Below are positions 9,225 through 64,000 of a DNA stretch of 64,000 bases, one piece after another. Below the pieces are notes generated by a model. That model saw nothing but the letters and a program-made list of their open reading frames with translations. It was not told where the DNA came from and ran no database searches. Location of the stretch: positions 3,735,833 to 3,799,832 of the forward strand of contig OZ245001.1 of assembly GCA_965223495.1 (NCBI GenBank), in the 5' to 3' direction. Source of the stretch: Nitrospirales bacterium (GTDB taxonomy: Bacteria; Nitrospirota; Nitrospiria; Nitrospirales; UBA8639). Position 1 is the first letter of the stretch. Each line of letters opens with the position of its first letter. Made by a program: the position numbers and the translations under genes.

Positions 9225-10145
9225 TTATAACTTTCCGGCTACCACCTGCTGATAGTCCAATAAGGTATGGATTTTCTTCGCGATGTCCTGATATCTGGCA
9301 ACGGTAGGATTGGCGCCATCCAATATCGGCTCCCCTTTATCAAACGTCCGGGCAAAATTCCGATCGAAAGGAATCCGTCCAAGGAGAGGAATCCCCAATA
9401 CTTCACACATTGATTCGGTATCACCCTCAAAAAGTGGATTTTCTTCTCCACAAGACGGACACCGATACTGACTCATATTTTCCACGACCCCTAATATCTC
9501 AATGTTCAATTCCTGTGCATAGGCGATCGACTTTTGCACGACATTCGAGGCCACCTCCGATGGGGTTGTGACCACCACAGCCCCCGCCAAATCAGGAATA
9601 AGCCCGGCCAAAAGTGGGGGTTTGTCCGCGGCCGCTCCAGGAGGAAGATCAGCTAATAAATAATCTAATTCCCCCCAAGCCATGTCAGAAAGGAACTCCC
9701 GAATGACGTTCATTTCGGTCAGCCCCAACCACACAGGGCTCAGATCCATGGGTCCCTTCCACCGGACGGGAGCGTTCGCCTGCAGGAGAAAATCCATCGA
9801 GGCCACTTTAATGTTCAAAGGTCCCGTCGGGGGTACCGCCCCTTCCGGAGTATCGATAAGCCCGGCACCACGCATACCCAACATTTGCGGCACACAAGGC
9901 CCATTGATATCCACATCCAGCAACCCCACCCGTTGTTCCATGCGGGCAAAGGCCAGGGCCAAATTCACGGTGGTCATGCTCTTTCCCACGCCACCTTTAC
10001 CGCTCATGACGACGACTTTGCGGCGGATACCCTTCATTCGAGCCATCACCATTTTGGTCTGAGCCGAGATCTGCTCTACGACCTTGGCATCATCAGAATA
10101 GTGAAGGTTATTAAGGATAGTCTTGAGGTCTTTTTGTTGGCTCAT
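9225..10145 (-). CDS. mrp: Mrp/NBP35/ApbC family Fe-S cluster carrier ATPase
   Basis: SGKGGVGKS, DVDINGP, DLPPG and ENMS..CPSC motifs. Confidence 0.93.
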   Translation of the reverse strand: MSQQKDLKTILNNLHYSDDAKVVEQISAQTKMVMARMKGIRRKVVVMSGKGGVGKSMTTVNLALAFARMEQRVGLLDVDINGPCVPQMLGMRGAGLIDTPEGAVPPTGPLNIKVASMDFLLQANAPVRWKGPMDLSPVWLGLTEMNVIREFLSDMAWGELDYLLADLPPGAAADKPPLLAGLIPDLAGAVVVTTPSEVASNVVQKSIAYAQELNIEILGVVENMSQYRCPSCGEENPLFEGDTESMCEVLGIPLLGRIPFDRNFARTFDKGEPILDGANPTVARYQDIAKKIHTLLDYQQVVAGKL

Positions 10146-33625: not shown

Positions 33626-34809
33626 CAAGAAATATTCTTCAACCTATATCTTGCAAGTAAGGTAAAGAAGTTGACTCGCCATGGGCTTTGTTTAGACCCT
33701 ACACAGCCCAGCCATCCCTCCGTTTGCTTTATTTAAGGTTGTTTCCTAATCTTTTTAATAGATGTTGTCTTCGCCGAAGTGTTTAGGAGAGAAGAAGACT
33801 GGGAATTCGTATGAAAAAAATATTCGAGGAAATTATTATATTGGCTCCATGCGATCTAAAGTGGACACTTGACGGAAAAAGATCTTCACATGGACTTGGA
33901 TAAAGGGCGATGGAATGGCAAAAGCAAAGAATCCCATAACATTCGCTCATGAGTTTGGAATTGATGAGGAAAATCTAAGAAGTTTAGGTGTTTTGAACGT
34001 TACTCTAGCAATTGATACGAAGTTATTCATTGATCCTTTGTTGTTAAAAAGAAGTAAGCACGCTGAGATATCGGGAATTGCAGCCAACCTATACCGACAG
34101 CATTTTGAGCAAGTAATAAAACTCCTCCGCGCAAGTAAGGCAGAGAATGATCCTGCCTGGAAGAGTGCCAAAAAATTACTGGCATTCCCCGAAATTAGGG
34201 GCACATGCCTGGGATATGGTGCTGGATCAATTCATGGCAGTGGCTTTGGTGATGGGCTATCTTCAAGAATCATTTCTGTAGCTTCACAAATTATTGATAT
34301 AGGAATAGAAGATCCGGATTTATTTTCGGCAATGGCCTTGTTTGAGCCAGATTTTGGCCCGGATAGAATCAGTGATATGACAACAAACATCATATTTGGA
34401 GCCCTAGCAGATTTTAACGAACGTTTATTAAAAATCTTAGGCTTAAAGGGGGAAGATTATACATACAAAAATACAAAGGGAACCTTCATTCTAAATCCTT
34501 ACGAAAAAAAGGATACTCCTATCATATTGTTACCAATAGATATTTTGAAAGATCTTCCTATTGCACATGATTGGGATAGTGTAGCTGATGCTGCAAGTAA
34601 GAATGATCAGCTTCGTGATGAAGTAAATCTTCACATTGCTTCTATTTGGGAAAAGAAAGCGAAACGGGACAAAGAGAGCCTTAAGAAAGAAGCATTGTCA
34701 AGCAAGAGAGCATTTGAGTTGCTGCTTTCTATAATGAACGATGTTTCCGCAAATCCTTATGACGTTGTCTCAGATCCCAACGGGTTGGTTAGATGGGCTA
34801 CTAAAGGCC

Positions 34810-36474
34810 CAGACTGTGTGAAAACTTCACCTACCCCATCATGCGCCATGCGCTAATCCGGGGAGCAACCCATCTCCTCTTGAGTTGCTTGTTGAGGCGA
34901 ACTATTTTGTTTTGTAGCCCCACGAGCCACCTGATGAGTCCCAGGCGGCGCTCATACGGTCCTAGTTGCGTGTATGAAGGCGTGCCTTACGCTTGGATCG
35001 CCTGGAGGAGTGGCTTCACGCCGAGAATCGACAGCATCCGTTTGAAGTTATACGCCAACACATGCAAACTCATCTCGGTGCGAACATGCTTGAGTGTTTT
35101 CATTTGGAAGTGGGTCGAGCCCATCCAGGCTTTTAAGGTCCCGAATGGATGTTCCACCGTTTGTCGTCGAATGCGCATCCGCTCCGGTTCTCGTTCAAGA
35201 CGGGCTTCGGCGGCCTCGAGCACGGCTTCATGTTCCCAACGTGTCACTCGCCGATAGGTCCCGGTCGTACACTGCGATTTGATGGGACAGTTGGGGCAAC
35301 GGGAGGACCAGTATTTGTAAAGCGTTAAGCCCTTCTCCTGTGTCTCGAACCGCCAGATGAGGCGCTCCCCTGCTGGGCATTCATACTCATTCTTGTCCGC
35401 GTGGTAGACAAAGTCGCGTTTGCTGAATAACCCTTTCTTCGGACTTCCCGATGTCTGCGGCTTGGGAAGATAGGTTGTAATCTTCGACTCCTCGCAGGCT
35501 AGAAGTTCTTCACTGGTGAAGTAGCCCCGGTCAGCCACCACCTCGAGTGTCTCTGCTCCGATGGCCTCCTTCGCTTGTTGCCCCATGTGGTGCAACTGGT
35601 GTCGGTCGCTGCCCGTATTGGTCACCTCATGGGCGACAATCAAATGATGCTCTGCATCCACAGCCGTTTGGACGTTATACCCGACAATGCCAGTGCCCCT
35701 CGTTTTCATTGATCGCGCATCGGGGTCCGTTAGGGAGAGTTGGTGGGCCGGGGCTTGACGCAGCTGGACTTCGAGCGATTTCAGGCGTTTCATTTCGGTT
35801 TTCAGTGCCGTGATCTTGTCCTCGAGCCGATGAATCTTGTCTTGGGCCATCGTCGCTTCTTGTCGATCCGCGCTGGCAAGCTGGCTCAGATAGCGGGCAA
35901 TGCTCTCATCAATCTGTTGCAACCGATGTTTCATCTTGGCGGCGGTGAAGTTCTTGTCTCGGTTATTGACAGCCTTAAACTTACTGCCATCGATAGCTAC
36001 AAAGGCGTCAGCAAACAGATTGAGTTTCTTGCACAGCACGAGGAACTCGCGACAGACCAAGCGAATGGCGGGGCCATTGTTCTTGCGAAAGTCGGCGATC
36101 GTTTTAAAGTCCGGGGCTAAGTGTCCGGTCAGCCACATCAGTTCCACGTTGCGGTGGGCTTCGCGTTCTAGACGACGGCTGGACTGTACTCGGTTGAGAT
36201 ACCCGTAGACATAGAGCTTGAGTAGGGTCCTGGGATGGTAGGCGGGGCGGCCCGTTTCCTCTGAATGGGTCTTGAAGCCCAGCCCGGAGAGAGCCAGCTC
36301 GTCAATGAAGACATCGATGACTCGTACCGCGTTGTCCTCAGCGATGTAATCATCCAACCGTTCGGGGAACAGGGTCGCTTGGTGGCGATCAGTCCCTTGA
36401 ATAAATCCGCTCATTCATCACACCTCCGTGGGAAAGTGCCATTATACTCTCCGGCGGAGTTTTCACACAGCCTG
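34810..36474 (-). mobile_element. IS1182-family element, copy 1 (intact)
   Basis: Terminal IRs CAG(A/G)CTGTGTGAAAACT; GGCC target duplication at 34806-34809 and 36475-36478. Confidence 0.95.
34987..36414 (-). CDS. IS1182 family DDE transposase
   Basis: LKLYVYGY...SSRRLE; PDFKTIADFR; IDGSK; TDPDAR; ADRGY; VEHPFG. Confidence 0.96.
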   Translation of the reverse strand: MSGFIQGTDRHQATLFPERLDDYIAEDNAVRVIDVFIDELALSGLGFKTHSEETGRPAYHPRTLLKLYVYGYLNRVQSSRRLEREAHRNVELMWLTGHLAPDFKTIADFRKNNGPAIRLVCREFLVLCKKLNLFADAFVAIDGSKFKAVNNRDKNFTAAKMKHRLQQIDESIARYLSQLASADRQEATMAQDKIHRLEDKITALKTEMKRLKSLEVQLRQAPAHQLSLTDPDARSMKTRGTGIVGYNVQTAVDAEHHLIVAHEVTNTGSDRHQLHHMGQQAKEAIGAETLEVVADRGYFTSEELLACEESKITTYLPKPQTSGSPKKGLFSKRDFVYHADKNEYECPAGERLIWRFETQEKGLTLYKYWSSRCPNCPIKSQCTTGTYRRVTRWEHEAVLEAAEARLEREPERMRIRRQTVEHPFGTLKAWMGSTHFQMKTLKHVRTEMSLHVLAYNFKRMLSILGVKPLLQAIQA

Positions 36475-37189
36475 GGCCATCAGTATGCTAAGCAGTTTCC
36501 TTTAAAATTCTCCAATACTTCAATAAAAACTATGGATGAAATATTTTCTATGGTTGAAGAAATAGTGACTCAGTTTCGTCAACTGATTGAACACAATGGT
36601 TTAAATAAAGAATTGTATGGAGGTAATAAAAAACCTCGTCATGAGTCTACGGCACAACGCCTGTTCTTTGCGGTGGCTTACTCCTATTGTAAAACAAATA
36701 ATGTAGACGTTTCCCCTGAGATAGATACAGGAAATGGACAAATTGACTTTAAGTTTGCAACTGGTTTCAAGGAAAGAGTACTTGTTGAAGTAAAATTATC
36801 AACTAATTCTAATGTCGTTCGGGGGTACACAACACAATTAGAATTGTATAAAACGGCTCAAGAAACATTGCGGGCCCTTTACTTGGTTATAGATGTCGGG
36901 GCAATGGGAAACAAATCTGATAATTTAATTAAAATAAGAAATGACGCTCGAGAACGAGGAGACCCATTATCAAGTCTCGAGTTTGTTGATGGAACTTTGA
37001 AAGTTCCGCCTAGCAAAAGAAAAGAATGACAAAATTCCGAATGTCCGCTTTTGACCGCTTACAATCCAATGCTGCCAATCCCAAAGCGTTTGGCAGAGAA
37101 GCTAGGTAAAGCACCAACATGCTTGAAGACTCTAACTGCACTAACGACGTGCAATTTTTTTGTGGTTTTAGAAAACCCAAATTAAAACA

Positions 37190-43691: not shown

Positions 43692-43787
43692 ATGAACGCC
43701 AAACACGTCGTGAGTCAGCACGAATGGCTGGAAGCCCGCCTGGAACTGCTCGCCAAGGAGAAGGCGTTCGATAAACAGCGCGATGAA
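43692..43787 (+). pseudogene. DUF899 family gene, N-terminal remnant
   Basis: MNAKHVVSQHEWLEARLELLAKEKAFDKQRDE, then similarity breaks off. Confidence 0.75.
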
Positions 43788-44078
43788 CCGGGTGTTCACG
43801 ACCCAAAAATTATCCTCGGACATCCCATACCAATGGCATCAGTTCTTTCCCTTCCTTTGAAGACCTTTTGAAATGTGTTTGAGCATTAGGGATGCGTTCA
43901 AGCCCGTAACCCCTGGGGCCGGTAGGACAAATGTTCTAGGGGTTCTGTCAAAGCCCTTAAGCTTGCCAATCATCGGATATTTGTTACACTGAGTTTACCC
44001 TCTCTAATTAATAACGCTCTCCTCAGTTTTAGACATTGCCGAAAAGCAAAGTACCTATCTTTTGGAAAGGGGGTTTCC

Positions 44079-44231: not shown

Positions 44232-44658
44232 CACGGCATCCGTGTAATACCAGGTGTTGGAGGGTTCCGACCTTCGTTGAAAGATGAGCGAAGAAGAAAT
44301 GGGGATTTGTCTGTTCTCGACCCAATAGAGTAACAGCGTGATTGAACGAGTAGAATTGTTCGCCCCGATTTAGAAGCCCTGTCCTTATTCCAGAGACGCG
44401 GCTCTGGTGAATCAACGTTGTCGGCTTTTGGGAGCAAGGGAAACTGATTGCATAAGATCGGCCGAGGAATTGACGGTCGGTTCTTGGACGGCTCCCGACC
44501 CAAAGCGGTCATTAGTCTGGGAAGGACAAGTTGTTCTCCTGGGCAAATTAGACAGAATAGTGTTTTCTGTTTTATGGATAACTTTCACTTCTTTCCTAAG
44601 CTTTTAACACCTTTTGCTTATTTGGCAGGAAATACTGGGCCATGTACTTATGAAGTAG

Positions 44659-45261
44659 ATGACTATGTCTATAAATAATTCTACGTTCAAACGAAGACTA
44701 AGATCGCTACAGCGTCTAGATAAGCGTAATTCTATAGCATCTTATGTTGAGGAAGCTGAACGGCTGGCTCGGGATTATCCCGAGTATGCTAGAGCTTGGC
44801 TGGAATGTGGAGTGGCGTTTACTGAAATTGCTCGGTACAAAGATGCAAGAACTGCGTTTGATAAAAGCGCACGCCTATGTAAGCCTGAAATGAGGTATTT
44901 ACCTTATTGTTGGAAGGGGCTCCTTTTTAAGGAACAGGGAAAACTCCATATGGCTGAAAATTGTTTCCGACATTCCTTAAAGAAAAATCCCAAATATGCT
45001 GACACATGGGGTTTTCTTGGAGCGGTTTTGGCCAAACAAGGAAAATTCAAGGAAGCCAAAGCTGCATGGCGAAAACTCATTCGGCTTGGTACCGGTGCCA
45101 CAGAAGAAGGCCACTTAAATCTGGGGCTTATATTTCGTGCTGAAAAGCGGTACAAAGAAGCACTGAAACATGCTGAGATTGCAATTTCACTTGATCGAAA
45201 TTACAAGGATGCGAAACGGTTAAGAAAGGACCTCCTGGAGGTCCTAAATCACGGCATCTAA
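44659..45261 (+). CDS. TPR repeat protein (cassette-like)
   Basis: Several TPR helices; the stop codon lies in the attC-like R'' box. Confidence 0.88.
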   Translation: MTMSINNSTFKRRLRSLQRLDKRNSIASYVEEAERLARDYPEYARAWLECGVAFTEIARYKDARTAFDKSARLCKPEMRYLPYCWKGLLFKEQGKLHMAENCFRHSLKKNPKYADTWGFLGAVLAKQGKFKEAKAAWRKLIRLGTGATEEGHLNLGLIFRAEKRYKEALKHAEIAISLDRNYKDAKRLRKDLLEVLNHGI

Positions 45262-45313
45262 CCCGAAAATCAAATCGATGCATAATGACTCGCGGCTTAT
45301 TTAACTGTTCGAC
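45256..45313 (+). other. attC-like integron recombination site
   Basis: ATCTAAC-N5-AAT[C]AAAT...GCTTATT-N5-GTTCGAC, 58 bp. Confidence 0.6.
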
Positions 45314-45327
45314 GGCAGGAGAAATTC

Positions 45328-45369
45328 AAGGTCCGCTTTTTGGCCGGCTACCGACCCAAAGGCGACATT
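45328..45369. repeat. Imperfect palindrome of the AATGTCCGCTT..GGCC/GACCCAAAGCGGACATT family
   Basis: Related copies at 37040, 44473, 45861, 46307, 51536, 53226, 56558, 60432, 62125 and 63551. Confidence 0.8.
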
Positions 45370-45385
45370 CGGATAGCTGTCAATT

Positions 45386-45865
45386 ATGGATGGAAACAAG
45401 ATAAGGACAGCAATTCGCGATTTCCTCGGTCTGCTAGAAAACGGTGGCTTGTCAGTCGAGCAAGCCGAGGAAAAATTACCGGCCCTACTAGATCACCTCG
45501 CATTTGCACAGTCTTTCGTTTCGTTCACGTATGACGACGCGGAATACCCCGATTCCCCTGCCCAGAACTACGATACATTACGGGCAACCGTCACAAAGCG
45601 ATTCCCAAATTACGGCTATTACAACATTGCCGAGAAAATCACAACCGACATAGGTGATTCGGGAACATTGGTGGGTGACGCCATAGATGATCTAGCCGAC
45701 ATTGCCCGAGACCTCTATAAGGTTGAGTGGTATTGGTCAAATACCAGCGAAGCCAACGCCCTATTCCACTTCGGGAATGACTTCAGGCATCACTGGCGAC
45801 AGCATCTCAGGGGATTGCAACTATACCTAGATGCCCTAGAGCTTGCTCGCGACCTTCCGGAATGA
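45386..45865 (+). CDS. DUF5063-like protein
   Basis: GD.IDDLADI..DL...HW..H motif. Confidence 0.72.
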   Translation: MDGNKIRTAIRDFLGLLENGGLSVEQAEEKLPALLDHLAFAQSFVSFTYDDAEYPDSPAQNYDTLRATVTKRFPNYGYYNIAEKITTDIGDSGTLVGDAIDDLADIARDLYKVEWYWSNTSEANALFHFGNDFRHHWRQHLRGLQLYLDALELARDLPE

Positions 45866-45911
45866 CCGGAATTGGCTGATTCCCGACCCCAAGCAGTCAT
45901 TCATCTATTTT

Positions 45912-46307
45912 ATGAATAAAGAATTAATCTACGTGGAAGTAAAATCGGGATATCGCGATAATGGACCTGCTTGGATCGGATTTCATGGAACTTCAAAATC
46001 AGGTTCCACAATCTATTTTAATGGGTTGGCTTTTCAGAGTTTAAAGGGCCGAGGTATGAGCGGCAATTATTTTGAGACTGAATCTGGGGAGGAATATTGG
46101 ATTTCAGGGGTTAAGAAAAAAGGCGGCGATCGTCACTGGGCAGGTAGCGGTAAAATAATCATTGATAAGAAGGCGGTGGATGAATTTTTGACATTAACAG
46201 GATTATCCTCATTACCACCAAATATAGAGCCGGAGGAATTGCTCCCTTCTAAACCAACACCTACCTTTCATGATAAACAAAATAAGCCTCTCAATGATTC
46301 CTATTAA
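45912..46307 (+). CDS. Conserved hypothetical protein (cassette-type)
   Basis: YVE.KSG..DNGPAWIG....SKSG.TIYFNG...GNY...GEEYWISG.KK.G.DRHWAG. Confidence 0.8.
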   Translation: MNKELIYVEVKSGYRDNGPAWIGFHGTSKSGSTIYFNGLAFQSLKGRGMSGNYFETESGEEYWISGVKKKGGDRHWAGSGKIIIDKKAVDEFLTLTGLSSLPPNIEPEELLPSKPTPTFHDKQNKPLNDSY

Positions 46308-46442
46308 ATGACTGCTTCTAACCACAGGCAGACATGTCCGTTGCTGACGAAGCACCGGGCTAGAAGCTGCTCCGGATACTCACACGATGTTTCCCACCCA
46401 TCCCGGTTCTGACTGGTTCCTGAATGACGTGTTCTTCTCTCC

Positions 46443-48647: not shown

Positions 48648-48827
48648 CGCTATCTCCGGTTGGGATGCCCTAGACTTGGCCCCTGGCCTTTGAGTCAGCC
48701 CATTCCCCCTCGCGGAGAATCTCCGAGGCAGGAATTGATCGATGTCTCGTGATTAATTAGGCTAATTTTTGATACAGCCAGAGAGGGCATGTATGGACCC
48801 TACGTGAAATTTCCAAGAAGGACTGGT

Positions 48828-48983
48828 GACCTGTACCACACGTATTCGTCATCCGGTAAAGGGGCCGCCATGATTCATGGTGCCTATTCTCTGTAGAATC
48901 AAGGGCCGAAAGGTCGGGATGACGCGGGGCAGCCCAGGAACCACGTCTGGATTGGCCGCCGCGACGAGTACGGCAACGGCTGA
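48828..48983 (+). pseudogene. DUF899 family gene, C-terminal remnant
   Basis: DLYHTYSSSGKG...AYSL*NQGPKGRDD...W..RRDEY with an internal TAG. Confidence 0.7.
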
Positions 48984-49028
48984 GGAAAGATGACGAGAAC
49001 CTTATTCATCTAAAGGGAGGTAAAGCCA

Positions 49029-49874: not shown

Positions 49875-50552
49875 TTTGAGTCCAGGTGTCCCACACCTAT
49901 TCGTCATGCGCTCGAGGGACCGACATGCTTCATGGCACGTAAAATGGGTTGGCCCGGGTGGCTTAAGGCCGAGATGATGCGGGGCTGCCTTTGCACCACG
50001 ACCGGCTTCACCACCGCGACGAATACGGCCAGGACTGAGGTTCAACCGGTAAAAAACGATGCAGATTGTGCCCTCCCTTTAAAATTGCACTGACACACAT
50101 CTTTTGTACTGACAAACTAGCGTTACCTCGCCCTTCGGACTGCACAGATTCGACAAACTCTGCTTCTCTCTGTTTGCTTTATTTCAGACTTTTTCCTAGT
50201 CTTTTTTTTTGCATCATCGCCCTTATTTTGCCGAAGGAAGAAGATTTATATCTTTATAAAAAGGATTGGCGGAGAAATATGTTAATGAACGCATACGACT
50301 CAAAGCGGGCATTCTGGTACTAGGCGCATAACTGGGAAAAGGTCGGATTGGCCTGGTCCCTTCAAACTAGTCCAGGTTCGGAGCGGACCAAAGGTCAGGT
50401 AACACGACCTAAGACGTGAGCTACGCCTTAAACAAACGGGGAACATTGTTGCTTGAGATTACACGTTAAAACGTCGGCAAGAACAACATCGTGTCCATTT
50501 CCCATACGGGCGAATATCTTTTGCTCTGGAGAGAATGAAGGAGTAAAGAATC

Positions 50553-51449
50553 ATGGATGCATTCATCAGTTACAGTTCACGTAACCGTGGCAAAGTGCGG
50601 AAGATTGCAGCCGACCTAGAAGCATTGGATCTCGAAGTTTGGTTCGACCAGGACGATATTCGGACCGGTCAACTACTCGGCATGGAATTGCAAGAAAGTG
50701 TGCGACGGGTCGATGCCGTCGTCTTAATGTGGTCACAGTTTGCCGCCCGCTCTCGCTGGGTTCACGTTGAGTGGATTACAGGATTGCACGAAGGCAAGCA
50801 CGTCCTTGTTTGCGCCCTGGACGATCACCCGATGATGCATTGGGCATCGAGTGCGGTGCATTTAAAAGTGGATCCTTGGACTAAGGCAAAGGCCAAGCGC
50901 TTGGCGCGAGACATCAGACAGGCTGTGGGGCAAGCCACAGCCATTCGCCCGCTAATGAATGTCCCCGAGCCAGAACTCTCTAAGGGGACCGATGCCATTG
51001 CAAAAGCACAGCAAATATTCCTGAACATGTTGTTAGAACGCAAAATGGAGGACGCCTCCAATGGACATAAATTGGTTACGGGCTTGCTCAAAAAGGCAAC
51101 TAAAATTTGGCCCTTAGACCCGATGGTGATCAAGCTGAACGGTTATCACCATAAAAATTCGTACATGCTTGATCATTGGAATGCCCTTCAAGCCGGACAA
51201 GGTCCCAAGAGCAAGTTATTGACCAAGTCGGAACAGTACTTTTTCCAGGCTCTTCACCTCAATCCTTTTGACGAAGAAGCCTTAAACGGTCTAGGCACTA
51301 CACTGACACTTTCCGGGGACTTGGATGCAGCCGAATACCTGCAAATCAAGGCAATTTCAACAGCGAAGAAAAAAGGGTTCGACTACAAACAAGCTAGGCA
51401 CGATCTGGCTATGGTTCGCCGAGCCAAGAATTCGGTGCAGTCACCTTGA
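50553..51449 (+). CDS. TIR domain + TPR protein
   Basis: FISYS...VWFD...G...SRWVHVEW (putative catalytic Glu); C-terminal TPR-like helices. Confidence 0.88.
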   Translation: MDAFISYSSRNRGKVRKIAADLEALDLEVWFDQDDIRTGQLLGMELQESVRRVDAVVLMWSQFAARSRWVHVEWITGLHEGKHVLVCALDDHPMMHWASSAVHLKVDPWTKAKAKRLARDIRQAVGQATAIRPLMNVPEPELSKGTDAIAKAQQIFLNMLLERKMEDASNGHKLVTGLLKKATKIWPLDPMVIKLNGYHHKNSYMLDHWNALQAGQGPKSKLLTKSEQYFFQALHLNPFDEEALNGLGTTLTLSGDLDAAEYLQIKAISTAKKKGFDYKQARHDLAMVRRAKNSVQSP

Positions 51450-51553
51450 TGGTGCGATCTTGTCACGGTCGTGGCCTGCCTTTTTCAAACTCGACCAGAT
51501 TTCGAGCTGGGATTCCGCAACCTCTACTACGTTTGAATAGTCCGCTCCTAGCC

Positions 51554-53225
51554 CAGGCTGTGTGAAAACTCCGCAGGAGAGTATAATGGCACTTTCCCAC
51601 GGAGGTGTCATGAATGAGCGGATTTATTCAAGGCGACGATCGCCACCAAGCGACTCTTTTTCCTGAACGGTTGGATGAATACATCGCTGAGGACAACGCG
51701 GTACGAGTGATCGATGTCTTCATTGACGAGCTGGATCTCTCCGGGTTGGGCTTCAAGATCCCTTCAGAAGAAACGGGCCGGCCCGCCTACCACCTCACAA
51801 CCTTGTTGAAGCTGTATGTCTACGGCTATCTCAACCGAGTACAGTCCAGCCGTCGCCTGGAACGCAAAGCCCACCGCAACGTGGAACTCATGTGGCTGAC
51901 CGGCCACTTAGCCCTGGACTTTAAGACGATCGCTGACTTTCGCATGAACAATGGCCCCGCCATTCGCTTGGTCTGTCGCGAGTTCATCCTGCTCTGCAAG
52001 ACACTCAATCTGTTTGCTGACGCCGGTGTGGCTATCGACGGCAGTCAGTTCAAGGCCGTGAATAATCGAGACCGAAACTTCACCAAGGCCAAGCTCCAGC
52101 GCCGCTTACAACAGATTGATGAGAGCCTTGCCCGCTATCTGAGCCAGCTTGCCAGCGCGGATCGACACGAAGCGACGATGGCCCAAGACAAAATTCACCG
52201 GCTCGAGGACAAGATCACGGCGCTGAAAAGCAGAAATGAAACGTCTGAAAACGCTCGCAGTCCACATGCATCAAGCGCCGGACCACCAGCTCTCCCTGAC
52301 GGACCCCGATGCGTGGTCGATGGCCACCAGTGGGCGCGGCACGGGGATGGTGGGGTACAACGTGCAGACCGCCGTCGAGGCGACGCACCACTTGATTGTG
52401 GCCCATGAGGTCATTAATGAAGGCCATGACCGTCACCAGTTGCACCACATGGCCCAACACGCGAAGGCGGCCATCGGAGCGGAGACGCTTGAGGTGGTGG
52501 CCGACCGGGGCTACTTCAGGAGTGAAGAACTTCTGGCCTGCGAGGAGTCGAAGATTACGACCTATCTCCCCAAGCCTCAGACATCAGGAAGCCCGAAGAA
52601 AGGCTTCTTGAGTAAACGCGACTTCATCTATCACGCGGACACGAATGAGTATGCCTGCCCAGCCGGGGAACGCTTGATCTGGCGATTCGAGACACAGGAG
52701 AAAGGCTTAACGCTTCACAAATACTGGTCCTCCCACTGCCCCAACTGTCCCATCAAGTCGCAGTGTACGACCGGGACCTATCGGCGAGTGACACACTGGG
52801 AACATGAAGCCGTGCTTGAGGCTGCCGAAGCCCGTCTCGAGCGAGAACCAGAGCGGATGCGCACGCGACGACAAACCGTCGAGCATCCATTTGGCACCTT
52901 AAAGTCCTGGATGGGCTCAACTCACTTCCAAACCAAAACCCTCAAGTAGGTGCGCACCGAGATGAGCTTGCATGTGTTGGCGTACAATTTCAAACGAGTA
53001 TTATCGATTCTTGGTGTGAAGCCACTCCTCCAGGCGCTCCAGGCATAGGTGGCGCCCTCATAGACGCAAAAAGGGACTCCTCAACGCCCCCCTTGAGGGA
53101 GCAGGTTGCCCGTGGGGACACAAAACAGAAAAGCTCATCTTAACGGCCAACTCAAGACGAGATGGGCTGACGCCCCAATAAGCACATGGCAAATGATGAG
53201 CGAATTGACTTTTTCACACAGTCTG
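51554..53225 (+). mobile_element. IS1182-family element, copy 2 (defective)
   Basis: IRs CAGGCTGTGTGAAAACT ... TTTTCACACAGTCTG. Confidence 0.92.
51614..53048 (+). pseudogene. IS1182 transposase with a +1 frameshift (~52228) and a premature TAG (52947-52949)
   Basis: Split ORFs 51614-52408 and 52236-52949; the C-terminal tail continues after the TAG. Confidence 0.88.
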
Positions 53226-53590
53226 GACCCAAAGCGGACATGCCGTTGCCTGTATTTATAGACTTTTGTATTTCTACCAGCGTGCCCAAGTTCGATCTTT
53301 GTACGATCCATAATACTTTTCAAGCATTAACCCTATCTCACCCCAAGGACCATCTGACAATCCATCAGGTGCACTGGCCATCCACGCCACTCTTGCCTGT
53401 CACCGCCTCCCTTTTTAAAAAACTACGTATCATGGGACCGAGTCTTAGGTCAGGTTAGGGAAAAGTTTTTTCGATAAATGAAGCTCCGGCTTTTCAGATT
53501 TCTTTTAGGATTTCAAAGGAAAGGTCTAAAAAGACAAGAAAGGGGAGAAGTAAGGAAATCCTGTGCTGTCCCATCTTGGGAGGCATTACA

Positions 53591-55922: not shown

Positions 55923-56225
55923 ATGGGTTCAAAATTGTATGTTGGTGGGTTGCCGTATTCGGCGACTCAAGCCGAATTAACCGATCTGTTTTCCGCGCAT
56001 GGCACGGTCCAAACCGTGAACGTCATTATGGACAAATACTCTGGCCAATCCAAAGGGTTTGGTTTTGTCGAAATGTCGTCAGGAGAAGAAGCTCAGGCCG
56101 CCATTGCCGCCTTAAACTCTACAGAGTTTGGCGGAAGAACGTTGACGGTCAATGAGGCGAGACCTCAAGCGCCACGCAGTGGTGGTCGGGATTTTGAGGG
56201 AAGTAAACGTCGCAGTCGGTTCTAA
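55923..56225 (+). CDS. RRM-domain RNA-binding protein
   Basis: RNP2 (LYVGGL) and RNP1 (KGFGFVEM); Gly/Arg tail. Confidence 0.96.
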   Translation: MGSKLYVGGLPYSATQAELTDLFSAHGTVQTVNVIMDKYSGQSKGFGFVEMSSGEEAQAAIAALNSTEFGGRTLTVNEARPQAPRSGGRDFEGSKRRSRF

Positions 56226-56247
56226 CGAACTGAATCACCTTCAGAAG

Positions 56248-56280
56248 GACGGGAGGGGCAACAAGGCCCCTCCCGTTTTT
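56248..56280 (+). terminator. Rho-independent terminator
   Basis: ACGGGAGGGGC-loop-GCCCCTCCCGT followed by a T-run. Confidence 0.85.
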
Positions 56281-57154
56281 CATAACACCGAGCAGGTGCC
56301 GCACACATTGCCCAATCCCCACTAACCGACTCCAAAACAGGTTTTTTACCTCATCAATTTTCACAAGCCCTTCACTGGCAATGCCTTCTCTTTCTCAAAC
56401 CCACTGACGGCCAATCAGCTGCTCTAAATCATAGTGGACTTTAAATAGGTCAGAGGGATTCAAGCCTTATTTGCATCAGCCACTCCATTTGCACACCAGA
56501 AACAATGGGATAACCCTTCATTGATCGTTAGCTGAATCTTACGGCCAAATCATCTCCAAAGTCGGCTTTTGGCAACCCAAAGCGGACATTCCGTTGCCCG
56601 TATTTGTTAGCCTTTGGTATTTTTAATCAGCGGACCACAGGTTTGGTCCTTGTACAGTCCACCAATTTCCATCGATTACTTATATCCATGCTGCATTGGT
56701 TATTTTTCAATGGTGCTAGGTTGGTGCTATGTTTGGAAATTCTTGGTTGAGTATCTCCAAGATCGCGCAATTGCAAATATGGATAGAATATTAGACTTCG
56801 GATCGATGGGAAAGGGATTGTCTAAGATATTGAAAACCTGACATCCCCTCTCTTGTCTTAGGTTTTGTTCTCCTCGCCTACAAGTCTCTCCTTGCGGCTC
56901 TTAGACGGGTTTTATCTCTCTTTTGCTCTCTTTTTAACACCTATTTAACCCTAAAAAGAGTAATCCATCTTTTACGATTTAAATATTCTCAATCGTTAGG
57001 TCAATTGCTTCATCGAGTAGTGGCCGTTGGGGCGTTTGGGTGACGTTTCTCCTGCCTGGGGACCCACTCTCTCAGAAAGAATCCTCCCTTCTCTTTCTCG
57101 GCAGTCGAGCGGACTGATGCGATTGAGGACAAAACTATACGTTTGTCAAAGGGG

Positions 57155-60391: not shown

Positions 60392-60448
60392 TTCTATGCC
60401 ATTAGTCTTCCCTGCCTTGTGGTGTGATTGAAATGTCGGCTTCTGGCC

Positions 60449-62124
60449 GAGGCTGTGTAAAAACTCACGTTCTCTCTTCTTTCACTTCTTCCATAGGCAT
60501 GTCAGCCCATCTCTGTTTCATGTTTTTGGTTTGCGAGGACGGGCATCGTCATCTTGAGGCACCACGTCGCTTCCTGATGCCTTACGAGTGGCGTTGAGGA
60601 GCACTTTTTGGCGTCGGTGAGTGCGCCACTTATGCCTGAATTGCCCGGAGGAGTGGCTTCACGCCAAGGATGGCCAACACCCGTTTGAAGTTGTACGCCA
60701 ACACATGCAAACTCATCTCGGTGCGCACCTACTTGAGGGTTTTGGTTTGGAAGTGGGTGGCGCCCATCCAGGCTTTCAAGGTCCCAAATGGATGCTCGAC
60801 CGTTTGGCGTCGCGTGCGCATCCGTTCCGGTTCTCGTTCAAGGCGGGCTTCGGTGGCCTCAAGGACCGCCTCCTGTTCCCAACGTGTCACGCGTCGATAG
60901 GTTCCGGTCGTACACTGCGACTTGATGGGACAGGTCGGGCAGTGTGAGGACCAATATTTGTGCAGTGTCAAGCCGTTCTCTTGTGTCTCGAATCGCCAAA
61001 TCAGGCGTTCCCCGGCTGGGCATGCATACTCATTCTTGTCTGCGTGGTACACGAAGTCCTGTTTGCTGAATAACCCTTTCTTCGTGCTCCCCGATGTCTG
61101 GGGCTTGGGGAGATACGTCGTGATCTTCGCCTGCTCACAGGCTAGGAGTTCTTCCCCCGTGAAGTACCCGCGATCAGCGACCACCTCGAGCGTTTCCGAT
61201 CCGATGGCCTCCTTGGCTTGGTGTGCCATGTAGTGTAATTGGTGCCGATCATGCCCCACATTGGTGACCTCGTGTGTCACGATCAAATGGTGCGTCGCCT
61301 CGACGGCGGTCTGCACGTTGTACCCCACCATCCCCGTGCCGCGCCCACTGGTGGCCATCGACCACGCATCGGGGTCCGTCAGGGAGAGCTGGTGGTCCGG
61401 CGCTTGATGCATGTGGACTGCGAGCGTTTTCAGACGTTTCATTTCTGCTTTTCAGCGCCGTGATCTTGTCCTCGAGCCGGTGAATTTTGTCTTGGGCCAT
61501 CGTCGCTTCGTGTCGATCCGCGCTGGCGATCTGGCTCAGATAGCGGGCAAGGCTCTCATCAATCTGTTGTAAGCGGCGCTGCAGCTTGGCCTTGGTAAAG
61601 TTCCGGTCTCGATTATTCACGGCCTTGAACTGACTGCCGTCGATAGCCACAAAGGCGTCAGCAAACAGATTGAGTGTCTTGCAGAGCACGATGAACTCGC
61701 GACAGACCAAGCGAATGGCGGGGCCATTGTTCATGCGAAAGTCAGCGATCGTCTTAAAGTCCAGGGCTAAGTGGCCGGTCAGCCACATGAGTTCCACGTT
61801 GCGGTGGGCTTCGCGTTCTAGGCGACGGCTGGACTGTACTCGGTTGAGATAGCCGTAGACATACAGCTTCAACAGGGTCCTTGGATGGTACGCGGGCCGG
61901 CCCGTTTCCTCTGACTGGGTCTTGAAGCCCAGCCCGGAGAGATTCAGCTCGTCAATGAAGACATCGATCACCCGAACGGCGTTGTCCTCAGCGATGTATT
62001 CATCCAACCGTTCGGGGAACAGCGTCGCTTGGTGGCGATCGTCGCCTTGAATAAATCCGCTCATTCCTGACACCTCCCTTGGAAAGGTGCCGTATACCTT
62101 CTTCAAGAGGTTTCACACAGTCTG
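60449..62124 (-). mobile_element. IS1182-family element, copy 3 (defective)
   Basis: Ends GAGGCTGTGTAAAAACTC and GTTTCACACAGTCTG. Confidence 0.9.
60630..62064 (-). pseudogene. IS1182 transposase with the same +1 frameshift and TAG as copy 2
   Basis: Split ORFs 61249-62106 and 60729-61442. Confidence 0.88.
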
Positions 62125-62241
62125 GACCCAAAACGGACATTACGGTCCCACGCGCATCGTTGCCAAAATATATAGGGTAGCCTTTGCCGAACGATGACAC
62201 CCTGACGTAAGATTTCCTGTAGCGGAAAAAAGAACAAAAAA

Positions 62242-62292: not shown

Positions 62293-62706
62293 TTATGCTT
62301 CGGTGATTTCAACTTTACGGGGCTTGGCTGGGCCCACTTTTGGTAAAGTGACACGCAAGACCCCATGCTTTAAATTCGCCGTGATATTGGCCTGATCGAT
62401 TACCTCGGATAGCGTAAACTGCCGAAGATATTTGCCGGTATTGAACTCCTGCTGGATATACTGTTCTTCTGTCGGAATAGAGATCGAAGGAACTCCGGTT
62501 AAAGTCAAGACACCTTCGCGGAGATCGATGCTTACATCATCGGATTGAACTCCCGGCATATCTGCCACAATGGTGAGCGCATGGTCGTCTTCAAATATAT
62601 CCACGTTGGGAGAATAAACACGGCCAGGAACCGTTTGCTCTGAAGCTGTTTTGACCTCCTGCTTGTCTCGAGCTTGAATATCTTGTGCTTGCGCAGTCAT
62701 GGTCAA
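62293..62706 (-). CDS. Hsp20/alpha-crystallin small heat shock protein
   Basis: PNVDIFE, ADMPGV and A.LKHGVL.VTLPK motifs. Confidence 0.95.
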   Translation of the reverse strand: MTMTAQAQDIQARDKQEVKTASEQTVPGRVYSPNVDIFEDDHALTIVADMPGVQSDDVSIDLREGVLTLTGVPSISIPTEEQYIQQEFNTGKYLRQFTLSEVIDQANITANLKHGVLRVTLPKVGPAKPRKVEITEA

Positions 62707-62773
62707 CTTCCTCCTTTCCAGAATTCAATGGGCTTCCCAAAGAGTTTTCTGTCTCACTTTTGCGATTCGGCTT

Positions 62774-63241
62774 TTAAACACTAATCGAAATCTTTTTGGG
62801 CTTAGCACTTTCGGCCTTGGGCAGTACCATCATTAAAATTCCGTGCCGGTATTTGGCCTGGACCTTTTCACTGTTGACATCGCTTGGCAAGTTTAACTGA
62901 CGCCGGAATTTTCCGGCTTCTCGTTCTCGTCGATGATATCTCACCTGTTGATCCTCAGTGGGAATCTTTCGTTCTCCAGAGATAGTCAAACTCCGGCCCG
63001 TCACTGAGACGTCTAACTCATCCAGAGTCAAGCCAGGAATCTCTGATCGGACGTAGAAGTTGTCATGATCTTGAGACACATTCAATAGTGGAAATACACC
63101 TGCAGTCGTCAATCCATCATCTGGTCCCATTCGAAATCCCATTAACTGATCGAGATCGCGACGAAGCCTTCCTAATTCTGAGAAGCTCGTCCCCAAACTA
63201 TCAAAAGGCCAGTTTTCCAATCTTTTTATGAACATAGTCAT
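62774..63241 (-). CDS. Hsp20/alpha-crystallin small heat shock protein
   Basis: FPLLNV, ISGERK, RRERE.GKF.R and A.YRHGIL..LPK motifs. Confidence 0.95.
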   Translation of the reverse strand: MTMFIKRLENWPFDSLGTSFSELGRLRRDLDQLMGFRMGPDDGLTTAGVFPLLNVSQDHDNFYVRSEIPGLTLDELDVSVTGRSLTISGERKIPTEDQQVRYHRREREAGKFRRQLNLPSDVNSEKVQAKYRHGILMMVLPKAESAKPKKISISV

Positions 63242-63567
63242 TCCCTCCCTCAAGGCAAGACCGGTGATCGCCATCGACCTAGATCCTGCTAATTTTTCAC
63301 TGACCTCGAGGTTGTGTCGTCAATTGTTTTCGCTTTTTAGGTAATGCCAGATTGTTATTTGTCAACCAGGGGGACCGAAAAAATTTTCCGATTTACCGTC
63401 CCTACGTAAACTGCTTTTCGACAATCTCCGACATTGGTCGGAGATTCCTATCTTCCATACCCCTTTTACTGCGGGTTAGGCGTTGCCCCCCAAAAACCCC
63501 ACACGGTACAGGGTATCGATTTAAAAATTCTGGTGTATGGCTTCTGGGCAAACGTCCGCTTCTGGCC

Positions 63568-64000
63568 CAGACTGTGTGAAAACTTCACCTACCCCATCAT
63601 GCGCCATGCGCTAATCCGGGGAGCAACCCATCTCCTCTTGAGTTGCTTGTTGAGGCGAACTATTTTGTTTTGTAGCCCCACGAGCCACCTGATGAGTCCC
63701 AGGCGGCGCTCATACGGTCCTAGTTGCGTGTATGAAGGCGTGCCTTACGCTTGGATCGCCTGGAGGAGTGGCTTCACGCCGAGAATCGACAGCATCCGTT
63801 TGAAGTTATACGCCAACACATGCAAACTCATCTCGGTGCGAACATGCTTGAGTGTTTTCATTTGGAAGTGGGTCGAGCCCATCCAGGCTTTTAAGGTCCC
63901 GAATGGATGTTCCACCGTTTGTCGTCGAATGCGCATCCGCTCCGGTTCTCGTTCAAGACGGGCTTCGGCGGCCTCGAGCACGGCTTCATGTTCCCAACGT
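63568..64000 (-). mobile_element. IS1182-family element, copy 4 (partial; runs off the window)
   Basis: Appears identical to copy 1 (34810-35242) over the visible part. Confidence 0.93.

Follow-up and report, generated by a model that had tools for sequence, protein, structure and literature searches.

Several unrelated small genes in a Nitrospirales chromosome are separated by short palindromic repeats, and this locus raises the question whether such repeats are the points at which single genes are cut out and rejoined. The window, i.e., the whole stretch of DNA analysed here, comprises 64,000 nucleotides (C1:3735833-3799832) of the single 4.71-Mb contig OZ245001.1 (49.3% G+C) of the Nitrospirales bacterium assembly GCA_965223495.1. 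Positions refer to the window unless the genome or another locus is named. An initial annotation, based on the letters of the window, had described four repeats (R1 to R4) bracketing three short genes and had proposed that they are recombination sites of an integron-like gene-capture system distinct from attC. Comparing sequences between genomes, we give a probability of about 50% to the reading that the repeats are crossover sites of a recombinase and bound mobile single-gene modules, in what is apparently an undescribed cut-and-paste system for single genes.

Repeat sites and the genes between them

R1 to R3 are clearly related repeats, and R4 is a weaker relative. Each site of the family is an inverted repeat with two arms (AATGWCYGCTTTKGG and CCMAAAGCRGWCATT; arm consensus AATGWCYGCTTTKGG), which are 12-18 bp long, share the invariant core GTC.GCT and lie around an asymmetric centre. 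The outer arms AATGWC ... GWCATT were found in every copy, and the repeats of the array measure 30-42 bp. Read on the forward strand, R1 (44473-44513; E = 2.8e-11) is composed of a degenerate left arm, the centre ACGGCTCCCGA and the right arm CCCAAAGCGGTCATT (score 22.8). A possible extra outer left arm, GTTGTCGGCTTTTGG (44417-44431, forward strand, score 12.8), is located 41 nt before R1 and resembles the form of relatives in which two left arms are separated by a spacer (compare L154:4430-4499). Left arm, centre and right arm are AAGGTCCGCTTTTTGG, CCGGCTACCGA and CCCAAAGGCGACATT in R2 (45328-45369; E = 2.5e-10) and AATGACCGGAATTGG, CTGATTCCCGA and CCCCAAGCAGTCATT in R3 (45861-45901; E = 7.4e-10). 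R4 (46307-46336), which closes this tight sub-array, has the weak arms AATGACTGCTTCTAA and CCACAGGCAGACATG (scores 14.4 and 11.2). The four repeats have drifted to about 70% identity and are spaced at cassette-sized distances of 440-855 bp. All of them were found where the initial annotation had placed them, with the end of R4 now read as 46336.

The genes between the repeats are all encoded on the forward strand, and a Pfam search agrees with the identities originally given. They encode a tetratricopeptide-repeat (TPR) protein of 200 aa (44659-45261; domain match), a DUF5063 protein (45386-45865; 27.1 bits against a cut-off of 27, i.e., borderline) and a hypothetical protein of 131 aa (45912-46307; no Pfam family). 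As had been noted, the DUF5063 gene ends inside a repeat (TGA at 45863-45865, within R3), and the last base of the next gene's stop codon (TAA at 46305-46307) is also the first of R4.

Two of these genes have close homologues in other genomes. The DUF5063 module (45352-45876, forward strand) starts with the right arm of R2 and a leader of 16 nt, continues through the open reading frame (ORF) 45386-45865 and closes with the R3 left arm, in which the stop codon lies. Homologues of its protein are 85-87% identical and lie on Nitrospirota-like contigs. At the DNA level, 45352-45876 is 88% identical to L153:5967-6491 and 45353-45871 is 88% identical to L154:1577-2095, and the rest of these two loci has no further match to the window. 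The match begins at the CGACCC of the R2 right arm and stops at the R3 left arm. The neighbours of the module differ in each context. In the window, the module is preceded by the TPR gene and followed by the 131-aa gene. In L153, it comes after a gene for 282 aa and a nested site, and another nested site, with a 900-nt insert, stands on its downstream side. In L154-156, the end of an IS1182-like insertion sequence (IS) abuts the right arm, and a helix-turn-helix/HipA pair follows downstream. The unusual arm variants GGCGACATT and AATGACCGGAA accompany the DUF5063 gene across these contexts.

The 131-aa module (45883-46307, forward strand) is built in the same way, from the right arm of R3 through a 10-nt leader and ORF 45912-46307 up to the start of the R4 left arm. 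This stretch is 86% identical to L242:5972-6396, and the match again begins at the R3 right arm and stops where the next left arm starts. In L242, full sites flank the homologue on both sides, and its neighbours differ from those in the window. The two modules are adjacent here and lie apart in other contigs. Thus, for two of the three genes, cross-genome homology starts and stops within the repeats, a positive outcome of the breakpoint check proposed originally. Since the homology of both modules runs from a right arm to the next left arm, the breakpoints are central, which points to a crossover at the site centre. Judged by these alignments, the two genes behave as modules, each running from a right arm through a leader and an ORF to a left arm. 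This geometry is unlike that of an integron, since the crossover is central and the modules carry a right arm at the 5' end and a left arm at the 3' end.

The comparison covers two of the approximately 10 intervals between sites. A possible third shared module, which makes a weaker case, is the gene at 62312-63103 between the sites at 62141 and 63551; its DNA is 68% identical to that of a gene in genome G015 (L022:8786-9586), which likewise follows a right arm (L022:8677-8691). Distant homologues of the DUF5063 and 131-aa genes in other phyla, i.e., in L157 (a Woeseiaceae metagenome-assembled genome) and L243, have no sites. Therefore, the sites are not tied to these gene families as such.

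We infer from these comparisons that the modules moved by excision and integration. In the proposed mechanism, recombinase subunits would bind both arms of a site and swap strands in its centre. Two direct sites would recombine, and the intervening gene would leave as a circle with one hybrid site, which might then re-enter at any other site. Re-entry of circles at other sites would explain why homology between genomes ends at site centres, and excision from and re-entry at direct sites would likewise account for the co-orientation of the sites, the half-sites at the module ends and the shuffled neighbours.

Around the sub-array, a DUF899-like gene appears to be split, with its N-terminal 59 codons at 43692-43871 and a C-terminal remnant (..DLYHTYSSSGKGAAMIHGAYSL..) at 48753-48990. 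The 4.9 kb between the two parts hold R1 to R4 and three minus-strand genes (SDR, SnoaL-like and isochorismatase). Neither breakpoint of this split lies at a palindrome.

Extent of the array and insertion sequences in its sites

At least 10 co-oriented intergenic sites lie between 37040 and 63565, with almost none elsewhere in the 4.7-Mb genome. A profile of R1 to R3 recovered its own three copies from the genome with E-values of 3e-11 to 7e-10; the next matches had E-values of 0.23 and 0.28, the latter belonging to the copy at 56558. In addition, an arm weight matrix was built from the arms of the window, with the reversed sequence as control. At a score of at least 18, the matrix found 24 arms in the genome and 6 in the control. 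Roughly 13 of the former are in the 37-64 kb part of the window, and strong arms outside this island of approximately 27 kb are at background level. The family is therefore local and not a dispersed repetitive extragenic palindromic (REP) element in this Nitrospirales genome, since its strong arms cluster between 37040 and 63565. In the approximately nine scorable sites, the left arm is of the TT(T/C)TGG type and the right arm of the TTTGGG type, preceded by (C)GACCC, and all of them have one orientation. Centres differ in length, with 3 nt at 56558, about 11 nt in R1 to R3 and 10-26 nt in a second species of the genus (G018); in nested forms they reach approximately 140 nt.

A genome-wide REP reading based on the exact core CCGACCCAAAG was rejected. 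This core occurs 8+8 times against 1.1 expected, but mostly within an unrelated repeat of about 10 copies. In the latter, the approximately 80-nt repeat GCGGCCTTGCTGGACGGACTTTTTTGAACCGACCCAAAGCTTCTGATAGCCCACGTCCTCCTGG, the 11-mer CCGACCCAAAG occurs by coincidence, so that simply counting the core motif gives too high a number. The 80-nt repeat is present at about 10 places in C1 (e.g., 776710, 2134154, 2680819, 2754562, 3307040 and 4016247) and is probably the end of another mobile element.

The remaining sites, all on the forward strand, include those that had been noticed after a nuclease gene, after a TIR gene and at 56558. The first site of the array (37040-37090) starts 10 nt past the stop codon of ORF 36265-37029 and has a left arm of about 21 nt (AATGTCCGCTTTTGA; arm score 21.3) and a degenerate right arm (CCCAAAGCG). 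The site at 50284-50313 (score 19.1), with a short left arm AATGAACGC and the right arm CTCAAAGCGGGCATT at 50299, sits 240 nt upstream of the TIR-TPR gene 50553-51449. A site split by an IS extends over 51537-53242, with the weak left arm AATAGTCCGCTCCT (51537-51550) and the right arm CCCAAAGCGGACATG (53228-53242). The compact intact site at 56558-56590 (AAAGTCGGCTTTTGG-CAA-CCCAAAGCGGACATT) has arm scores of 19.2 and 23.7. A second IS-split site (60432-62141) has its left arm AATGTCGGCTTCTGG at 60432-60446 and its right arm CCCAAAACGGACATT at 62127-62141, and a one-armed site (63551-64000) has the left arm AACGTCCGCTTCTGG at 63551-63565, followed by an IS1182-like copy. Copies had also been reported around the hsp20 gene pair. 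Sites do flank that block; the arm scan of the window gave no family arm between 56590 and 60432. Just past the RRM-domain gene 55923-56225, an inverted repeat rich in G+C with a T-run behind it (GAAGGACGGGAGGGGC..GCCCCTCCCGTTTTTC; 56244-56281) looks like an ordinary intrinsic terminator and is distinct from the palindrome family 280 nt downstream.

The IS1182-like element (DUF772 and DDE_Tnp_1 domains) is present in four copies in the genome, which are 85-90% identical to each other and all located in this region. Copy 1 (34806-36477, minus strand) lies inside a gene, with GGCC on both sides and no palindrome. Copy 2 (approximately 51551-53227) sits in a palindrome centre with both arms flanking it. 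The same holds for copy 3, which is inverted and lies between the arms 60432-60446 and 62127-62141. Copy 4 follows the arm at 63551-63565 and runs past the window end; it has an arm on one side only, and no matching right arm was found beyond it. We considered the arms as terminal repeats of the element and rejected this, because copy 1 has GGCC flanks and no arms; the palindrome arms are thus target DNA and not IS ends. The same junction of IS and arm was found in other species of the genus and in other phyla. The IS1182 family (IS1272/TnSha1) has been reported to target hairpins or palindromes (PMC4923244, an article that cites Siguier et al., 2015). Our copies are alike in that three of four are at palindrome sites (two with both arms and one with one arm). 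They differ in an apparent GGCC-like 4-bp flanking repeat, whereas elsewhere part of the target is deleted.

Outside the window, three fragments of an IS30-family transposase are about 82% alike (C1:4464769-4465400 and C1:259984-261188). The IS30-family end GTGAGTTCAACTGGTCG directly abuts the half-site AATGTCCGCTATGGGTT, and the same junction is present at L020:2900 and L153:10781. By these junctions, the IS30 family is, besides IS1182, a further one whose members insert into these palindromes.

A candidate recombinase and relatives of the palindrome

[quoted passage not shown] A screen of ORFs near palindromes yielded tyrosine recombinases of 210-217 aa, which consist of the catalytic domain alone (PF00589) and have the catalytic residues R, K, HxxR, H and Y all present. 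For one subfamily, the L096 type, 80 loci from soil metagenomes were sampled. Of the 60 loci testable on the upstream side, 27 have an ATGTCYGC palindrome 106-112 nt upstream of the start codon, and a palindrome lies within 250 nt downstream of its stop codon in 30 of 64 loci, mostly at 104-111 nt. The flanking pair is inverted (GGGTCA upstream, TGACCC downstream) in 20 of 48 loci; the reverse arrangement was seen in none. In soil metagenome contigs, the recombinase gene is thus bracketed by an inverted pair of sites at a fixed distance of about 108 nt. The 41-nt form of R1 to R3 aligns with a 41-nt variant located just upstream of the L096-type recombinase gene.

The initial annotation had supposed a recombinase encoded elsewhere. 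There is indeed a candidate beside a site (genome 3865697-3866162), with AATGTCCGCGTTGGGTCGAATAGCGAGTATC immediately upstream, but this gene (genome 3865781-3866162), the only one of the L096 type in the genome, is a pseudogene. It is frameshifted, lacks about 80 codons and is 66% identical to the L096 type over its C-terminus.

A second subfamily, the L021 type, is common in Nitrospirales, and one member lies within an array of the same genus (L021:4969-5622). This gene was rejected as the cognate enzyme, since six other contexts of its subfamily have no AATGTCCGC-type site within 10 kb of the gene and the subfamily carries a lox-like palindrome of its own instead (CTATTTTCGCTTTT..AAAAGCGAAAATAG), 70-90 nt upstream of the gene. 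Such palindromes are located at L159:8752-8778 and 9917-9943, L161:7990-8088, L244 (about 990-1020), L245 (about 1270-1300) and L021 (about 4900-4930), and they are followed by toxin-antitoxin and other small accessory genes. A CGCTTT/AAAGCG core is common to the palindromes of both types. Because the L021 and L096 types carry different palindromes, the arm sequence co-varies with the recombinase subfamily, which is what one expects of an enzyme and its site. The small recombinase of about 210 aa is likely the partner of the sites, and its action on them is suggested by genomic linkage. Other enzymes were also sought in the genome. Of the tyrosine recombinases found, all are Xer-like (two proteins of 311 and 324 aa) or of phage type, and none is an integron integrase (best match to TIGR02249 of 78 bits against a cut-off of 265); the sites are not attC, as had been proposed. 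An HUH (RAYT-like) partner had been proposed as an alternative. Nine Y1_Tnp matches exist in the genome, and none adjoins an arm or lies within 2 kb of an arm scoring at least 13; this alternative thus gained no support.

In most sampled genomes of the same genus, the arm is enriched over the control (e.g., 21 vs 2, 22 vs 5 and 15 vs 1). Among the other genomes of the order with at least three matches, six of seven are not enriched. The copies of the genus again form arrays that separate accessory genes of one orientation. G018:C41 has five sites, each placed between genes that point the same way (encoding a 588-aa protein and GNAT, TIR and AAA_13 proteins), with the conserved arm directed at the start codon that follows, just as in the window. 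Nearly all G018 sites are co-oriented, and no recombinase gene was found in the G018:C41 array. Furthermore, nested composite sites occur in the genus (L021:3598-3736; L153:5747-5984 and 6476-7483; L020:3677-3736). They consist of an outer left arm, 30 nt, an inner left arm, the centre, an inner right arm, 27 nt and an outer right arm. A nested site has about 140 nt and a single-strand fold of -20.8 kcal/mol (z -2.0), and one of them holds approximately 900 nt inserted at its inner centre. R1 to R3 look like the outer pair of a nested site minus its interior.

A scan of species genomes for ATGTCYGCTTT-N(0-30)-AAAGCRGACAT gave at least 120 loci. Pseudolabrys, other Xanthobacteraceae, Rhizobium, Agrobacterium vitis, Sphingomonas, Woeseiaceae and Lysobacter are among the matches listed, as are a betaproteobacterium, Planctomycetota, Chloroflexota, Udaeobacter and Dyadobacter. 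In these loci, the palindrome measures 27-29 bp, with arms of 12 bp; of 115 copies, 104 have a centre of 6-7 nt. Soil Alphaproteobacteria carry this form in abundance, and further phyla have it as well. The palindrome is frequently repeated in tandem, with a period of 46 nt, and many copies separate paralogous genes for ABC substrate-binding proteins. Around the recombinase gene of soil Alphaproteobacteria, we counted about 0.9 palindromes per kb. The family is thus not peculiar to cassette-like arrays; in soil Alphaproteobacteria, the palindrome is a high-copy intergenic repeat. A phage origin was also considered and rejected; 10 matches in viral contigs equal the chance expectation, and four of them are ordinary copies of the alphaproteobacterial type. 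A search of the literature by sequence and topic found no description of the palindrome.

In the alphaproteobacterial loci L044, L055, L059, L063, L093 and others, palindromes were called as protein starts or short ORFs. The derived peptides read MSAFDPKRT.., MSALGQKRT.. and ..CPLLAQSGH.., and the ABC-type paralogues on either side carry MRRREFI..LLGGAA..WPLAARAQQ. Judging from these translations, the palindromes probably give rise to wrongly called starts and to spurious small proteins.

It is tempting to speculate that these observations belong to a gene-shuffling platform that crosses phyla, an integron analogue of different construction, and that pairs a miniature tyrosine recombinase of catalytic domain alone with lox-like palindromes of central crossover. 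Such a platform would cut out single-gene modules and insert them anew, and its sites would have multiplied to REP-like numbers in soil Alphaproteobacteria. We hold this wider proposal only tentatively. Many of the modules would then be of defence type (TIR, AAA_13, toxin-antitoxin) and would reside in chromosomal islands of Nitrospirota.

Alternatives and comparison with known systems

Several points weigh against the sites being crossover points of mobile modules. The centre length varies across the Nitrospira copies from 3 to more than 20 nt, and reaches about 140 nt in nested forms. In addition, among the contigs compared, no recombination product came to light, be it a circle, an empty site or a polymorphism between strains of one species. 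Simple tyrosine-recombinase core sites require a fixed centre of 6-8 bp between inverted arms of 11-14 bp; many Nitrospira copies would therefore be unusable as substrates as they stand. The alphaproteobacterial density of 0.9 per kb looks like that of REP or miniature inverted-repeat transposable element (MITE)-type repeats. The comparison for module behaviour covered two genes only, those for the DUF5063 and the 131-aa protein. The Nitrospirota contigs examined yielded no intact recombinase of the appropriate type, and the one inside the same-genus array (L021:4969-5622) belongs to the subfamily that shows no link to the sites in six other contexts. Finally, the flanking sites of the recombinase gene itself are inverted, which predicts inversion or a transposon-like unit and not excision. 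In this genome, the array is probably a fossil of a system that is no longer active, given a defunct recombinase gene, the divergence of the arms and the IS1182-like copies that interrupt three of the sites.

The main rival, which we regard as rather unlikely, is that the repeats are selfish REP- or MITE-like palindromes whose centres are insertion hot spots, and that the genes have not been moved. Module-like borders would then arise from foreign DNA that repeatedly lands in palindrome centres. The high copy number in Alphaproteobacteria is in agreement with this, and tandem A-B-C clusters of hairpins there look like non-autonomous derivatives of a recombinase unit. Of the four IS1182-like copies, three have landed in palindrome centres, and half-sites directly adjoin IS30-family ends at genome 4464769 and 259984. 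Relatives have nested palindromes, and one-sided arm mutations dominate, as in decaying repeats. However, random dispersal predicts mixed orientations, whereas the family is confined here to one 27-kb island in a single orientation. Moreover, both ends of two genes match site centres in independent genomes, and the inserted neighbours are genes that end in arms, which in effect amounts to exchange from one site to another.

Xer exchange, RNA hairpins and a classical integron remnant are less likely. Potentially, host XerC/XerD-type recombinases use the sites, as in the pdif modules of Acinetobacter. The two Xer-like proteins of the genome could serve such a function, pdif modules are likewise bounded by inverted-arm sites with a central crossover, and the array would stay functional despite its dead small recombinase. 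We consider this improbable. The arms are unlike the E. coli dif consensus, which may not be that of the host, and the genome has no dif-like site with up to seven mismatches, a weak test. In addition, the orientation of pdif sites alternates and all sites here are direct, and the bracketing at fixed distance points to the small recombinase.

An RNA-level or transcriptional role, as terminators, mRNA-stabilising hairpins or leader elements, is very improbable. Copies lie just past stop codons and 10-16 nt ahead of start codons, and REP-like hairpins can have RNA-level roles in other bacteria. The single-strand folds of the copies, however, are no better than those of shuffled sequences (z -0.1 to -2.4), and thus the 'palindrome' is a pair of related inverted arms and not a stable hairpin. 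Among 697 copies of the alphaproteobacterial type, arm positions 3-5 and 7-9 are nearly invariant, and mirror positions vary independently (at position 6, 28 double changes were counted where 34 are expected; position 10 has only a small excess). Independent mirror positions together with weak folds favour duplex arms that are read by a protein over a selected hairpin. The copies also have no T-run, no Rfam match was found in the window or in eight related loci, and the primary sequence is kept across phyla next to unrelated genes.

A classical integron remnant, i.e., a cluster of attC sites without an integrase (CALIN), would fit the 440-855 bp spacing, the co-oriented genes and the stop codons inside repeats, and CALINs have been reported in one Nitrospira genome (PMC9024848), but is hardly credible here, given that no IntI match exceeds the family cut-off, that the arms are AATGWC/GWCATT and not RYYYAAC/GTTRRRY (judged by the box motif), that the breakpoints are central and not at the right-hand end, and that the one attC-like stretch (45254-45315; R'' ATCTAAC, R' GTTCGAC, which does not fit GTTRRRY) does not fold (-2.8 and -3.5 kcal/mol for the two strands; z +0.9 and +0.7).

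If the sites are crossover points, the exchange of single-gene cassettes extends beyond integrons and the dif modules of Acinetobacter. Nitrite-oxidising Nitrospirota could then swap defence and stress genes that are invisible to integron finders; IntegronFinder 2.0 reported only two CALINs in this phylum (PMC9024848). An enzyme would also be assigned to a very abundant class of palindromic repeats of soil bacteria. Under the wider cross-phylum proposal, recombinase sites, and not elements of HUH transposases, would make up at least one of the classes of 'orphan' palindromic repeats in bacteria. For annotation, the palindromes matter because they translate to spurious N-termini (MSAFDPKRT..., MSALGQKRT...). 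They also break metagenome assemblies, since insertion sequences sit in them.

Among known systems, the pdif/dif modules of Acinetobacter plasmids (XerC/XerD) are similar in that gene-sized modules are delimited by short sites with inverted arms, one and the same module turns up in different contexts and breaks off within the sites, the sites are IS targets, and the recombinase is encoded elsewhere. The two modules described here recur in three and one foreign contexts, respectively. In contrast to the 28-bp pdif sites (11-6-11), which resemble chromosomal dif, the arms described here are unrelated to dif, as far as the E. coli sequence, which may not be that of the host, can stand for it. They are also all direct and have centres of variable length. 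The pdif modules are carried on Rep_3 plasmids, whereas the present arrays are in chromosomal islands of Nitrospirota, with a dedicated 210-aa recombinase as the candidate in place of XerC/XerD.

Integrons (IntI, attI, attC, CALIN) share the co-oriented, promoterless-looking single-gene units with a repeat at every joint, the stop codons inside the repeat and the accessory and defence-type cargo. They differ in IntI and the R/L-box signature, both of which are missing here. An integron cassette carries a whole attC at its 3' end, whereas the units described here have a half-site at both ends and a central crossover, and attC acts as a stable folded strand with extrahelical bases, whereas the present sites fold no better than z -0.1 to -2.4 and show no mirror covariation.

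The alphaproteobacterial form, with its 12-bp inverted arms and asymmetric centre of 6-7 bp, resembles the sites of Cre/loxP and Flp/FRT, and, as in simple tyrosine-recombinase systems, the recombinase gene lies next to its sites. The candidate enzyme has the size of the FimB/FimE invertases and consists of the catalytic domain alone. Cre/loxP and Flp/FRT have one or two sites, whereas the present family has hundreds of dispersed ones and the Nitrospira centres range from 3 to more than 20 nt.

The REP/REPIN-RAYT systems are alike in their high-copy intergenic palindromes, in pairs and clusters, and in a gene bracketed by an inverted pair, and CGTC-tagged REPs of Alphaproteobacteria were reported without an associated transposase (Di Nocera et al., 2013; PMC3733652). 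Compared by description, REPs and CGTC-tagged REPs have an unpaired GTAG or CGTC tag at one end of a stem of 8-13 bp, whereas no such tag was seen here and TGTC lies in the paired arm; REP arms are 8-9 bp long and those described here 12 bp. REPs are dispersed round the chromosome, whereas the present family is local in this genome and reaches a REP-like density (0.9 per kb) in soil Alphaproteobacteria. The bracketed gene of REP/REPIN-RAYT systems encodes an HUH Y1 transposase, whereas the one bracketed by the present palindromes encodes a tyrosine recombinase (PF00589).

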